Counted from the first letter of the stretch, positions 15,863 to 22,569 are shown. The stretch is DNA of 64,000 nt from Escherichia coli (GCF_003334405.1 NZ_QOWM01000017.1), one strand, 5' to 3'. A program made the numbers and translations. The notes: a model not told the origin generated them from the sequence alone.

Positions 15863-17227
15863 TCAAATTACCGCCCATACGCACCAGGTAATTAAGAATC
15901 CGGTAAAACCGAGAATGGTCGTTAACACTGTCCAGGTTTTCAGACCGTCTGCTACCGATAACCCCAGATATTTGGTCACAATCCAGAACCCTGAGTCATT
16001 AATATGTGACGCACCAAGCCCACCAAAGCAGGCTGCCAGCGTCACCAATACGCACTGAATCGGATTCAATCCCATCACCGCTTCTGAGAGTAACCCGCCG
16101 GTTGTCAGTATTGCTACGGTTGCTGACCCCTGCGATGCACGCAGCGCCAGTGAAATAATAAATGCGGCTGGTAACAGAGGCAGGTCAATCATTTGTAGCA
16201 TGTTGGCAAGGGCTTTGCCGACGCCCGATTCCACCAGCACTTTGCCAAATACCCCTCCAGCACCAGTAACCAAAATCACTACCGCCGCAGTAGGAAGCGC
16301 TGAGCCCATAATGTCGCTGGTGTGTTGTAAGCTCCAGCCGCGACGTAAAGCCAATAACCAGAATGCCAGCACCAGCGCAATCATTAGAGCTACCATTGGT
16401 GAGCCGATCAGCTGTAGCGTACCAAGCAGGGGATGCGAAGGCGGCATCAGTGTTGCGGAAACCGTACCCGCCATGATAATCGCGATAGGAATAACAATTA
16501 GCGAGGTGACCAGCGCGACGCCCGGTGGATTTATTTTATCGCTTAATTTTGTCGCGCCTTCCTCACTGGCCGGAGCCAGTTGCATCTGTTCCAGTACTTC
16601 TACTGACATCGCATATTGGCGCTTATTGATTATTTTCGCTGCAAAGTAGCCAACAACCCCTACGGGAATAGAAATCGCAATACCGATGATGGTTAGCCAG
16701 CCGATGTCTGCGTGGAGTAACCCCGCTGCGGCGACAGGGCCTGGATGCGGCGGTACCGCCACGTGAACAGTGAGCATGATCCCAGCGACAGGCAGGCCAA
16801 ATTTGAGTGGCGATATTTTGGCAACCTTGGCAAAACCGTAAATGATTGGCGCAAGAATAATAAAGCCGACATCAAAGAAGACGGGAATACCGAGGAAGAA
16901 CGCTGCCAGAGTCAGCGCAGCGATAGTTCGTTTGTCACCTAACTTGCGACTGAAATAATTAGCCAGTGACTCTGCACCACCAGAGTGTTCGATCATACGC
17001 CCCAGCATAGCGCCCAGACCAATAATAATAGTGACGGAACCAAGCACACCGCCCATCCCGGCGATCATCACTTTACCCACTTCGCCCGCCGGTATACCCG
17101 CCGCAAGTGCGACTAACAGGCTGACGAGGAGCAGAGCAACGAATGGTTGTACCTTTGCCTTGATGACCAGCAGCAACAGCATGATTACGCCAGTTAACGC
17201 AATGCATAACAATGTAATTGTGGACAT
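15863..17227 (-). CDS. ygbN: GntP-family acid-sugar transporter
   Basis: Track ORF 454 aa, polytopic membrane protein of the gluconate permease family; first gene after rpoS in the K-12-type mutS-rpoS segment. Confidence 0.9.
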   Translation of the reverse strand: MSTITLLCIALTGVIMLLLLVIKAKVQPFVALLLVSLLVALAAGIPAGEVGKVMIAGMGGVLGSVTIIIGLGAMLGRMIEHSGGAESLANYFSRKLGDKRTIAALTLAAFFLGIPVFFDVGFIILAPIIYGFAKVAKISPLKFGLPVAGIMLTVHVAVPPHPGPVAAAGLLHADIGWLTIIGIAISIPVGVVGYFAAKIINKRQYAMSVEVLEQMQLAPASEEGATKLSDKINPPGVALVTSLIVIPIAIIMAGTVSATLMPPSHPLLGTLQLIGSPMVALMIALVLAFWLLALRRGWSLQHTSDIMGSALPTAAVVILVTGAGGVFGKVLVESGVGKALANMLQMIDLPLLPAAFIISLALRASQGSATVAILTTGGLLSEAVMGLNPIQCVLVTLAACFGGLGASHINDSGFWIVTKYLGLSVADGLKTWTVLTTILGFTGFLITWCVWAVI

Positions 17228-17315
17228 GGGAAACCCTGTCTGAAAGTTATAGTTAACCTACCCCATCCGTAGATGGGGGGATGTATGGGTACGTTGTAAT
17301 TAGGGATTTAACGAA

Positions 17316-18092
17316 TTAGCGCCAGGCGTCAAACCAGCCAAGCCCTTCTTCGGTGAGGCCACGAGGTTTATATTCACAACCGATCCAGCCCTGATATCCC
17401 ACCTCATCGAACAGGCGGAACAGCCACGGATAGTTGATTTCTCCATCGTCCGGTTCATGTCGATCAGGTAGTCCGGCAATTTGTACGTGCGCATATTTCC
17501 CGGCGTAGTCGCGGATTAAATGCGTCAGGTTGCCATCTACTTTTTGCGCATGAAAAGTATCTAGTTGAATAAACACGTTATCTCGCGCAACTTCTTCAAC
17601 AATAGCCAGTGCCTGATACTGGCTGGAGAAGAGATAATGAGGCTTAACGCCGGGGCTGAGTGCTTCAACTAATATTCGCTTGCCGTGTGGCGCAAAGCGG
17701 TCGGCAGCGTAGCGGAGATTATCGATAAATACTGCCCGGTACCGTTCAGCATCTTCGCCAGCGGGCACGACGCCTGCCATCACATGGACTTGTTCACAAT
17801 TGAGCGCCAATGCATATTCCAGTGCCAGGTCGATGTCTGCGTGTGCTTCGTGCTCACGTCCGGGAAGGGCGGATAATCCCCATTCCCCCGCATTAATATC
17901 TCCGGGAGCGGTATTGAACAGCGCCAGTGTCAGATGGTTTTGCTCCAGTTGCTTTTGGATTTGCAGGGTGGAGTAGTCATAGGGAAACAGAAATTCCACA
18001 GCATCGAACCCGGCTTTTCGCGCTGCGGCGAAGCGTTCAATAAAAGGCACTTCGGTGAACATCATGGATAAATTAGCTGCAAAACGAGGCAT
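17316..18092 (-). CDS. ygbM: 2-oxo-tetronate isomerase (hydroxypyruvate isomerase-like, TIM barrel)
   Basis: Track ORF 258 aa; conserved operon position. Function from established knowledge of the ygb/otn genes. Confidence 0.85.
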
Positions 18093-18096
18093 TGCA

Positions 18097-18735
18097 TTAA
18101 CTCCTTAATTCCGCAATTTCACCTGCGGTCAGATAACGGATCGGGCGGTCACCGAGAATAAAAATCAGCTTTGCCGTTTCCTCCAGCTCTTCCATATTGT
18201 TGGCGGCTTCTTGCAGGCTTTCACCGCAAACCACTGGGCCATGATTTGCCAGTAAAAAAGCCTGATTGTCTGCTGCCAGTTCCGCCAGATCCTGTGCGAT
18301 GCGTTTATCGCCCGGTCGGTAATAAGGCACCAGCGGGACATTTCCCATCCGCATCACCACGTATGGTGTGAACGGACGAATAACGTTGCTGCTGTCCAGC
18401 CCTTGCAGGCAGGAAAGCGCCGTCGACCATGTGCTGTGCAAATGCACCACCGCTTTACAACGCGGATTGTTGCGATACAGCGCCAGATGAAAGAGCACCT
18501 CTTTCGAGGGTTTGTCACCACTTAACCATTCGCCATCCGCGGCGACTTTGGAAAGCCGCTGCGGATCGAGATTGCCCAGGCATGAACCTGTCGGTGTCGC
18601 CAGTAAATTCCCGTCAGGTAAAAGCAGCGACAGATTGCCAGCCGAACCGGTTGCATAGCCGCGCTGAAAGAATGAACTGGCAATCCGCGTCATCTCCTCT
18701 CGCAAAGACTGCTCTACTTTTGCGAAATCGCTCAT
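18097..18735 (-). CDS. ygbL: Class II aldolase/adducin-family enzyme (3-oxo-tetronate 4-phosphate decarboxylase)
   Basis: Track ORF 212 aa; conserved operon position. Confidence 0.85.
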
Positions 18736-21017: not shown

Positions 21018-21064
21018 CTAAGCGTTAGTTGCGCCGCGCACGTTTCGCAGGCAAATAGCGTAGA

Positions 21065-21862
21065 ATGTCAGCAGGACAAAGGAAGGAGCAAAAGTTGATA
21101 CCCGTAGAGCGTCGCCAAATCATCCTTGAGATGGTAGCTGAAAAAGGCATTGTCAGTATTGCTGAACTAACGGACAGAATGAATGTGTCACATATGACCA
21201 TTCGTCGGGATTTACAAAAACTGGAGCAGCAGGGAGCCGTTGTGCTGGTGTCCGGAGGCGTCCAGTCTCCGGGACGCGTGGCGCATGAACCTTCTCATCA
21301 GGTAAAAACTGCGCTGGCAATGACGCAAAAAGCGGCTATTGGCAAGCTGGCGGCAAGTCTTGTTCAGCCGGGAAGTTGTATCTATCTGGATGCGGGAACG
21401 ACCACGTTAGCGATAGCACAGCATCTGATTCACATGGAGTCACTGACTGTGGTCACAAACGATTTCGTTATTGCGGACTACTTGCTCGACAACAGTAATT
21501 GCACAATTATTCACACTGGCGGTGCAGTGTGTCGGGAAAACCGTTCCTGTGTCGGGGAAGCCGCTGCGACCATGCTGCGCAGCCTGATGATTGATCAGGC
21601 TTTTATTTCTGCATCGTCATGGAGTGTGCGGGGGATTTCTACGCCAGCGGAAGATAAAGTCACGGTGAAACGGGCGATTGCCAGTGCCAGCCGCCAGCGA
21701 GTTTTGGTCTGTGATGCGACGAAATATGGTCAGGTGGCGACATGGCTGGCGTTACCATTAAGCGAGTTTGATCAGATTATTACAGACGACGGTTTGCCGG
21801 AGAGTGCCAGTCGCGCGCTGGTGAAGCAGGATCTCTCTTTGCTGGTAGCGAAAAATGAATAA
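21065..21862 (+). CDS. ygbI: DeoR-family transcriptional regulator of the ygb operon
   Basis: Track ORF 265 aa; N-terminal HTH (IVSIAELTDRMNVSHMTIRRDL) and DeoR C-terminal sugar-phosphate binding domain; exact start uncertain. Confidence 0.85.
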   Translation: MSAGQRKEQKLIPVERRQIILEMVAEKGIVSIAELTDRMNVSHMTIRRDLQKLEQQGAVVLVSGGVQSPGRVAHEPSHQVKTALAMTQKAAIGKLAASLVQPGSCIYLDAGTTTLAIAQHLIHMESLTVVTNDFVIADYLLDNSNCTIIHTGGAVCRENRSCVGEAAATMLRSLMIDQAFISASSWSVRGISTPAEDKVTVKRAIASASRQRVLVCDATKYGQVATWLALPLSEFDQIITDDGLPESASRALVKQDLSLLVAKNE

Positions 21863-21886
21863 TGGCCTGCAATAACACCGGGTTAC

Positions 21887-21924
21887 TCATGCTTCACAGA
21901 AGAAGCATGAGACTACTTTATTTT
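21887..21924. terminator. Hairpin with flanking T-run between convergent ygbI and pphB (possible bidirectional terminator)
   Basis: TCATGCTTC-ACAGA-AGAAGCATGA followed by GACTACTTTATTTT. Confidence 0.4.
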
Positions 21925-22569
21925 ATAAAATGACAGCCGCCCGCTGTTCGGCGATCCGGTATCAATATAAATCTGGTTAGCGAACGTCTGAATGTTATCA
22001 AACATCATATGTCCAAATATAAAATAATCAGCGCCGTTTATTTGTTGTAACTCGCCATTAAGCGATTTCTGCACACGATCAACAGGCCAGAGTAATTCGC
22101 TCTCCGCTATTTCTTTACCAAAGAGATATTCACTCCCCGGATAATCTGCATGTGCGATGGCATATTTTATGTTGTCGTTAGTGATTTCAATAATATGTGG
22201 AAGGTGATGGAATTTCAGCAACAGATCTATTGCCTCTTGTTGCTCTGAATCATTTAAATCGAAAAACCAGTCACCACCGCTGGCAAGCCACATATTGCCA
22301 TCGCCAGTTTCGAATGCCTCAAGCGCCATCGCTTCGTGGTTGCCTTTAACCGACGTAAACCAGGGTTGGTTTAGCAGGCGCAGGACGTCAAGACTCTCCG
22401 GTCCACGATCAATATTATCGCCGACAGAAATAAGTAAGTCGATTTCGGGGAAAAAAGAGAGTTGATGTAAGCGGGATTGTAATAACTGATATTCACCATG
22501 AATATCACCAACGACCCATATATGGCGATAGTGATGGGCATTGATTTTTTGATAGCGTGTAGATGGCAT
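21913..22569 (-). CDS. pphB: Serine/threonine protein phosphatase 2
   Basis: Track ORF 218 aa; metallophosphatase motifs (GDIHG, GDNIDRG, GNHE). Confidence 0.9.
   Translation of the reverse strand: MPSTRYQKINAHHYRHIWVVGDIHGEYQLLQSRLHQLSFFPEIDLLISVGDNIDRGPESLDVLRLLNQPWFTSVKGNHEAMALEAFETGDGNMWLASGGDWFFDLNDSEQQEAIDLLLKFHHLPHIIEITNDNIKYAIAHADYPGSEYLFGKEIAESELLWPVDRVQKSLNGELQQINGADYFIFGHMMFDNIQTFANQIYIDTGSPNSGRLSFYKIK

Follow-up and report, generated by a model that had tools for sequence, protein, structure and literature searches.

In Escherichia coli the interval between rpoS and mutS is a known hotspot of variation in gene content (Ewers et al., 2014; PMC4209514). The interval is described here in a 64-kb stretch of E. 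coli DNA (64,000 nucleotides of NZ_QOWM01000017.1, assembly GCF_003334405.1), called the window below, in which all positions are counted. Seven genes lie at 15863-22569: the operon ygbJKLMN, the gene of its repressor, ygbI, and pphB. Very probably this is the usual chromosomal region between rpoS and mutS in an E. coli resembling phylogroup A, arranged as in pattern II of the species, in which a self-regulated six-gene module, predicted to serve L-threonate breakdown and probably an old one, stands beside a separate pphB.

The seven open reading frames (ORFs), all uninterrupted in the ORF list for 12-27 kb, are enclosed by rpoS (14777-15769, plus strand), which is conserved and anchors the variable interval on the left, and by mutS (22675-25236, minus strand), the right anchor. 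The operon is encoded on the minus strand. Its first gene, ygbJ (ltnD; 19991-20899), codes for L-threonate dehydrogenase (NF043037 ThreonDh, 473.7 bits against a cut-off of 350, residues 7-301) and is followed by ygbK (otnK; 18732-19994), which codes for an intact 3-oxo-tetronate kinase of the DUF1537 family with 420 amino acids (NF043035, 598 bits against 350, residues 3-415 of 420). Next come ygbL (otnC; 18097-18735; NF043034, 334.8 bits against 250) and ygbM (otnI; 17316-18092), the gene of 2-oxo-tetronate isomerase (NF043033 OxoTetrIsom, 396.4 bits against 325). The last gene, separated from ygbM by a spacer of only 88 bp, is ygbN (15863-17227), which encodes a GntP-family permease, predicted to be an acid-sugar:H+ importer (NF007332 equivalog, GntP transporter PRK09821, 827 bits against 524, residues 1-454 of 454). 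The gene of the DeoR-family repressor of ygbJKLMN, ygbI (21095-21862, plus strand; NF040890 trans_reg_YgbI, 484 bits against 400), has an alternative upstream ATG at 21065 that is also in open frame. The seventh gene, pphB (prpB; 21913-22569, minus strand), codes for a Ser/Thr phosphoprotein phosphatase (NF007425, PRK09968, 467 bits against 332).

All seven proteins pass their NCBIfam equivalog cut-offs with full-length matches. The first-pass annotation of the window had placed seven K-12-type genes at these positions; the ORFs are present and intact, and equivalog matching gave no sign that they are anything other than the ygb/otn genes. The same genes have the same offsets in the RefSeq annotation of E. 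coli FORC 064, from which the window differs at one base in 14,801 (12000-26800). Over 4355-50000, some 45 kb, the two differ by three single-nucleotide polymorphisms (SNPs), leaving aside spacer differences in the array of clustered regularly interspaced short palindromic repeats (CRISPR) and one small palindromic stretch. The region 13500-25300 is matched in 5,425 of the 5,426 complete E. coli genomes (megablast).

One RefSeq product name deserves comment. YgbM is called 'HPr family phosphocarrier protein' by way of NCBIfam NF007441 (588 bits), but the protein itself scores above the cut-off of the equivalog for 2-oxo-tetronate isomerase, and in other genera its orthologues fall into the Pfam family AP_endonuc_2. 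The label looks like a propagated misnomer. In these records the fhlA gene is also labelled 'flhA'.

Arrangement and borders of the interval

Four patterns of the mutS-rpoS region have been defined by polymerase chain reaction, pattern II being that of K-12 and of group A of the ECOR collection (Ewers et al., 2014; PMC4209514). That paper credits the original descriptions to LeClerc 1999, Herbelin 2000, Culham and Wood 2000, and Kotewicz 2003. In pattern II ygbN (o454) directly adjoins rpoS, and neither slyA/kpdBCD, which mark pattern IV, nor c3302-c3304, which mark pattern III, are found in the interval. The window has precisely this form: rpoS and ygbN are separated by a 93-bp spacer that contains no genes, and both the ORF list and the annotation give the seven genes only. 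Gene order and spacer are as in MG1655, so that the arrangement was rightly called K-12-type.

The distribution of the patterns was established with junction-specific queries against the 5,426 complete E. coli genomes, the query for the rpoS-ygbN junction being 401 bp long. Pattern II, recognized by its rpoS/ygbN junction, is the commonest (1,948 genomes, 36%). It is followed by pattern IV, with a kpdD/ygbN junction (1,593 genomes, 29%), by pattern III, the B2 type, with an MBL/ygbN junction (1,042 genomes, 19%), and by pattern I, the O157 type, in which kpdD adjoins pphB and the ygb genes are absent (806 genomes, 15%). The four junctions jointly cover 5,389 of the 5,426 genomes. The census, like the published typing (PMC4209514), confirms that the interval is a strain-variable hotspot, and it places the window in the most frequent of the four arrangements.

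In O157:H7 (pattern I) the order of genes is rpoS, MarR, hydroxyarylic acid decarboxylase B, C and D, pphB and mutS. In pattern IV (enteropathogenic E. coli/B1-like), represented by a chicken isolate, the MarR/decarboxylase segment of 2.9 kb is followed by the complete ygb module. In NU14 and 'isolateI', which were taken as B2 representatives and carry the same pattern III insert, a flavodoxin gene and an MBL-fold gene precede the module. The anchors common to these three patterns and the window are rpoS with its terminator on one side and pphB-mutS on the other. In uropathogenic NU14 pphB is split by an insertion of IS1A.

The borders of the variable segment can be given to the base. Homology with O157:H7 Z1486 stops at 15815 and restarts at 21914 (blastn), and homology with the pattern IV and B2 strains likewise stops at 15815 on the rpoS side. 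In genomes where the 401-bp query does not match contiguously, it breaks at query positions 196-205, corresponding to about 15815-15824 in the window. The polymorphic segment thus extends over 15816-21913 and contains six genes, ygbN to ygbI; its 6,098 bp are exchanged for 2,936 bp in O157:H7.

The left border lies within the 93-bp spacer, which consists of two back-to-back terminators. The intrinsic terminator of rpoS (15785-15815, plus strand) is an inverted repeat with a hairpin at 15785-15814 and a T run at 15812-15815 (fold -27.8 kcal/mol, z -5.3). The terminator hairpin of ygbN (15827-15854, minus strand) has 13-nt arms that are 100% complementary (fold -17.2 kcal/mol). Junction sequences were compared at the 8 nt between the two, CTGTGCAC (15816-15823), and the extra segments of patterns III and IV are placed exactly between the rpoS and ygbN terminators. 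Strains of pattern IV have the ygbN hairpin immediately behind the stop codon of kpdD, where it is placed to serve both ygbN and kpdD. The right border coincides with the end of another hairpin, located between the convergent genes ygbI and pphB (21886-21911; 10-nt arms, 100% complementary), which folds on both strands; a different hairpin occupies this place in O157. A scan for consensus promoters and terminators returned counts not above those of shuffled sequence and was not relied on, and no Rfam RNAs were found in 13-26 kb. The four arrangements may be pictured as whole segments present or absent between two terminators, the ygb segment having been replaced in the O157 lineage.

These borders leave pphB outside. 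The first-pass annotation had treated the seven genes as one unit delimited by 15863 and 22569. These positions are the outer ends of ygbN and pphB, but the borders of the polymorphic segment are 15816 and 21913: the exchange in O157:H7 takes six genes, and pphB stays with mutS. In each of the four E. coli patterns examined pphB is the neighbour of mutS, and the six-gene modules found in other genera do not include it. The interval is composed of two functionally unrelated parts, the six-gene module and pphB, a low-GC (guanine plus cytosine) phosphatase gene attached to mutS.

Polymorphism of the mutS-rpoS region has been described since 1999-2003 and serves as a typing marker. The arrangement reported here is already known and ordinary, and the observation itself is real and was correctly identified. 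Its significance is small, as functions at the family level have already been assigned to the ygb genes and their repressor has been characterised. What is added is an updated count of each arrangement across 5,426 complete genomes, base-exact borders that place the alternative segments between two back-to-back terminators, and the finding that pphB lies outside both the variable unit and the catabolic module.

The ygb operon, its repressor and its predicted substrate

The divergent control region between ygbJ and ygbI (195 bp, 20900-21094) contains candidate operators of YgbI. The motif TCACWTAAAWTAACA occurs in it three times, at 20910-20924 (minus strand), 20982-20996 (plus strand) and 21002-21016 (minus strand), and the last two copies form a palindrome with 16-nt arms at 20981-21017. 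Independent evidence comes from comparison: a B2 strain, E. albertii and Salmonella all keep the operator-like blocks unchanged, whereas the intergenic sequence around them has diverged. In PMC8464067, a single YgbI site was located by ChIP-exo (chromatin immunoprecipitation with exonuclease digestion) between ygbI and ygbJ, overlapping the ygbJ promoter, and deletion of ygbI increased the expression of ygbJKLMN and enabled MG1655 to grow on L-tartrate. The candidate operators agree with both results. The three sites would represent the YgbI operator at the nucleotide level, for which no sequence was found in the text of PMC8464067, and which of the copies YgbI would contact we infer; by binding to the repeated sites, this DeoR-family protein would repress ygbJKLMN. 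It weighs against the assignment that the absence of TCACWTAAAWTAACA from the rest of the 64 kb is a circular count, the motif having been derived from these very sites.

In the four-step pathway of Zhang et al. (2016), as summarised in PMC12540250, LtnD converts L-threonate to 2-oxo-tetronate, OtnI converts 2-oxo-tetronate to 3-oxo-tetronate, OtnK phosphorylates the latter, and OtnC decarboxylates the OtnK product to dihydroxyacetone phosphate. All four enzymes, including a full-length OtnK, are encoded in the window in one operon, together with the permease and the DeoR repressor. Upon induction of the operon, YgbN would import a four-carbon acid sugar, and the successive action of LtnD, OtnI, OtnK and OtnC would convert L-threonate to dihydroxyacetone phosphate. 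Judged by homology, L-threonate is the predicted substrate of the ygb operon in E. coli. The Salmonella and Citrobacter clusters also encode the D-erythronate dehydrogenase DenD (NF043036, 449.5 bits in Salmonella against a cut-off of 325), but a Salmonella DenD query gives no match better than E = 3.7 in the 64-kb window (tblastn). Since no D-erythronate dehydrogenase is found in the window, only L-threonate is predicted. Of the L-threonate/D-erythronate module proposed in the first-pass annotation, the four-carbon acid-sugar assignment is thus upheld by the equivalogs and by PMC12540250, and D-erythronate is dropped. Structures have been solved for relatives of OtnK (3DQQ, 737 bits; 1YZY; 5DMH) and of LtnD (3G0O). 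We take 3DQQ to be Salmonella YgbK, and 1YZY is HI1011.

Three points weigh against L-threonate as the substrate. The ygb genes are annotated as 'putative' in MG1655, no enzyme or growth data for E. coli on L-threonate were found in the accessible literature, and the E. coli phenotypes tied to derepression are growth on L-tartrate and on m-tartrate, so that the natural substrate may differ. In addition to the L-tartrate growth of the ygbI deletion described above, both lines evolved on m-tartrate acquired ygbI mutations and overexpressed ygbJKLMN (PMC6452873). The real task of the operon in E. coli might then be the use of tartrate isomers or of another C4 acid, the otn/ltn names having been transferred from homologues. 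We consider this unlikely. The four enzymes are equivalogs of characterised enzymes of the L-threonate pathway, and the authors of PMC6452873 themselves regard the tartrate effect as a likely promiscuous activity. Moreover, the tartrate experiments were carried out with MG1655, in which ygbK is frameshifted, and say little about the intact allele.

The difference in ygbK lies at about 18843, where the window has G5 and MG1655 has G4. The K-12 frame shifts at codon 384, and a comparison of the C-termini shows a product of 388 amino acids in MG1655 and of 420 in the window. Among the 4,581 of 5,426 genomes that contain otnK, 4,210 carry the intact allele and 371 the K-12 allele, the latter including laboratory derivatives such as ER1709. 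The window is therefore K-12-type in its arrangement but not in this allele. As the published ygbI/tartrate experiments used MG1655, they were done with a truncated kinase, and phenotypes of K-12, whose reference ygbK is frameshifted, may not transfer to strains like the one described here. It is possible, though we put it forward only tentatively, that the intact 420-amino-acid otnK of some 4,200 genomes confers growth on L-threonate, a phenotype missing in K-12 owing to the ygbK frameshift, and that the conserved TCACWTAAAWTAACA sites are the YgbI operator. L-threonate is a breakdown product of ascorbate; if the proposal is true, the picture of this operon gained from MG1655, the tartrate phenotypes among it, is not representative of the species.

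Age of the module and divergence of the region

The six-gene module is probably old in the interval and not an insertion. In the GC profile of the region the ygb genes resemble the flank from truD to rpoS, with GC of 0.516-0.545 and GC at third codon positions (GC3) of 0.49-0.56; the sole atypical gene is pphB, whose GC of 0.425 is the lowest of the region, compared with 0.52-0.55 in its neighbours. Neither transfer RNA genes nor direct repeats at the borders were found in 13-26 kb, and the annotation contains no transposase, integrase or insertion sequence. Three marks of a genomic island were looked for and none was seen: the composition is not atypical, the borders bear no signs of mobility, and the site is not empty in sister species, ygbI-JKLM being found in the corresponding interval of Salmonella and Citrobacter. 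E. albertii has the same six genes, seen there on a short contig, and the order ygbI / ygbJKLMN recurs in Serratia, Succinivibrionaceae and Desulfovibrio as well.

Acquisition of the ygb block by horizontal transfer, as an island of seven genes inserted into the K-12 lineage, is very improbable, and the 'insert' of the first-pass annotation misleads. The gene content of the interval does vary between strains, O157:H7 lacks the block, and the similar six-gene modules of unrelated gut bacteria (Succinivibrionaceae, Desulfovibrio) indicate that the module is mobile over long time scales. Against an island stand its presence in 4,581 of 5,426 E. coli genomes of several phylogroups and in E. albertii, its occupation of the same interval in Salmonella and Citrobacter, the match of its GC and GC3 to the flanks with no mobility marks, a divergence between phylogroups that is core-like (0.3-2.9%), and the position of pphB outside the ygb unit. 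Two special forms of acquisition were also considered and rejected. An island of anomalous composition does not fit, only pphB being atypical. Acquisition from gut anaerobes had been raised by an OtnK contig scan, which gave E. albertii and then only homologues of at most 59% identity; it was dropped after a protein search found graded Enterobacterales orthologues of OtnK that the peptide-pattern scan had overlooked (E. albertii 92%, Salmonella 80%, Citrobacter 77%, Serratia 67% identity).

Because Salmonella and Citrobacter hold both ygbI-JKLM and the MarR-decarboxylase segment in the interval, the K-12 type looks like the form that lacks the decarboxylase segment, and not like a form that gained ygb. 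The simplest reading is that the MarR/decarboxylase and ygb segments are both old residents and that E. coli lineages differ mainly by loss. The direction of gain and loss is one we infer; what tells against it is that it comes by parsimony from two outgroup genera in which the segments are reordered and reoriented and ygbN is replaced. The paper of Herbelin (2000) is reportedly on the same theme, to go by its title, 'Gene conservation and loss'.

Divergence along the region is uneven. Relative to K-12, 12 SNPs and one indel are found in the 6.9 kb from 15770 to 22674, a SNP density of about 0.18%. The last K-12 SNP is at 22446, inside pphB; the next 24.5 kb or so (22447-47000) show a single difference, and mutS has no SNPs. 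If divergence were uniform, a far smaller step would be expected at 22446. Divergence from O157, from a pattern IV strain and from B2 strains amounts to 0.3-2.9% in the ygb genes and in nlpD-rpoS, and the 3' two-thirds of mutS differ by 4-7% from the alleles of these strains (sliding divergence). In the pairwise matrix pphB diverges by 3.2-7.5% between lineages, and pphB together with the 3' part of mutS (22675-24500) by 3-7.5% for every pair of lineages; the two B2 strains are 4.2% apart in the 3' part of mutS. Both a mosaic structure and horizontal transfer have been published for mutS (Brown 2001 and Denamur 2000, as cited in PMC4209514). The earlier suggestion that the whole region is a candidate for recombinational replacement is thus partly borne out: mosaic ancestry is visible, with the strongest signal in pphB and towards the 3' end of mutS, but not in the ygb genes, whose divergence is core-like.

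As an observation apart, cysD, cysN and cysC (5999-8941) differ from K-12 by 0.8-2.8%, whereas the genes of the ygbE-rpoS stretch differ by at most 0.6% and those of the mutS-hypF stretch by about zero. The jump hints at a further recombination tract, at cysD-cysN-cysC, upstream of the interval.

The amber allele of rpoS noted next to the segment is real. Codon 217 is TAG at 15425-15427 where the wild type has GAG, owing to T for G at 15425 (translation LRLN*RITSV), and RpoS is truncated to 216 amino acids. Codon 33 encodes Glu, which sets the allele apart from the codon-33 allele of K-12. It is the single difference from FORC 064 in 14.8 kb, and an exact match to the 61-mer around it was found in one of 5,407 genomes, that of O157:H7 ATCC 43889, which has a different interval type without ygb. 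Since the change is private on a FORC 064-like haplotype and its other carrier is an O157:H7 strain without ygb, it is a new point mutation and not an imported allele; it looks like a private, recent loss of function. Import together with the block was rejected on the same two grounds, the other carrier being an unrelated strain.

That the whole rpoS-ygb-pphB-mutS block was recently replaced by recombination, bringing the rpoS amber with it, can hardly be entertained: the fall in SNP density after 22446, the divergence of pphB and the 3' part of mutS between lineages, and the horizontal transfer of mutS reported in references cited in PMC4209514 would speak for it, but the amber amounts to one private base change, and apart from it the haplotype is the one that many strains carry, some 45 kb hold only three SNPs relative to FORC 064, the sole other genome with the 61-mer lacks ygb, and the ygb genes are without excess divergence.

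Elsewhere in the window, the stretch 1-4627 opens with type I-E cas genes, about 95% identical to the set of O157:H7 Z1486, and after these come CRISPR repeats at about 3620-4627. FORC 064 has an IS421 transposase and a shorter array at this locus, and one spacer differs at 4384-4415. Between hycI and ascB an imperfect palindromic element of about 80 bp occupies 39827-39907; its centre (39855-39874) differs from FORC 064 and looks like a flipped loop.

Comparison with related intervals

Among the closest known counterparts is the interval of MG1655 (b2733-b2741: mutS, pphB, ygbI, ygbJKLMN, rpoS), which has the same genes, order, orientation and spacers as the window. Across 15770-22674 it differs by the 12 SNPs and the one indel mentioned above, and mutS is identical. 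With respect to the L-threonate pathway of Zhang et al. (2016), the gene assignments predict the same four enzymes here, and the window would cover one of the two entry routes named in the first-pass annotation, there being no D-erythronate dehydrogenase.

In the Serratia module YgbN is 80% identical to that of the window, which is above the identity of the enzymes of the cluster (65-74%). In Salmonella enterica and Citrobacter freundii ygbI-JKLM, with 77-86% amino-acid identity, lie between rpoS and mutS together with MarR/hydroxyarylic acid decarboxylase genes. There ygbN is replaced by denD and a non-orthologous GntP permease of 498 amino acids (33-34% identical to YgbN), pphB is not present in the interval, and the order and orientation of the segments differ from those of E. 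coli. The Salmonella interval contains, in addition, extra LysR, MFS and DUF4440 genes.

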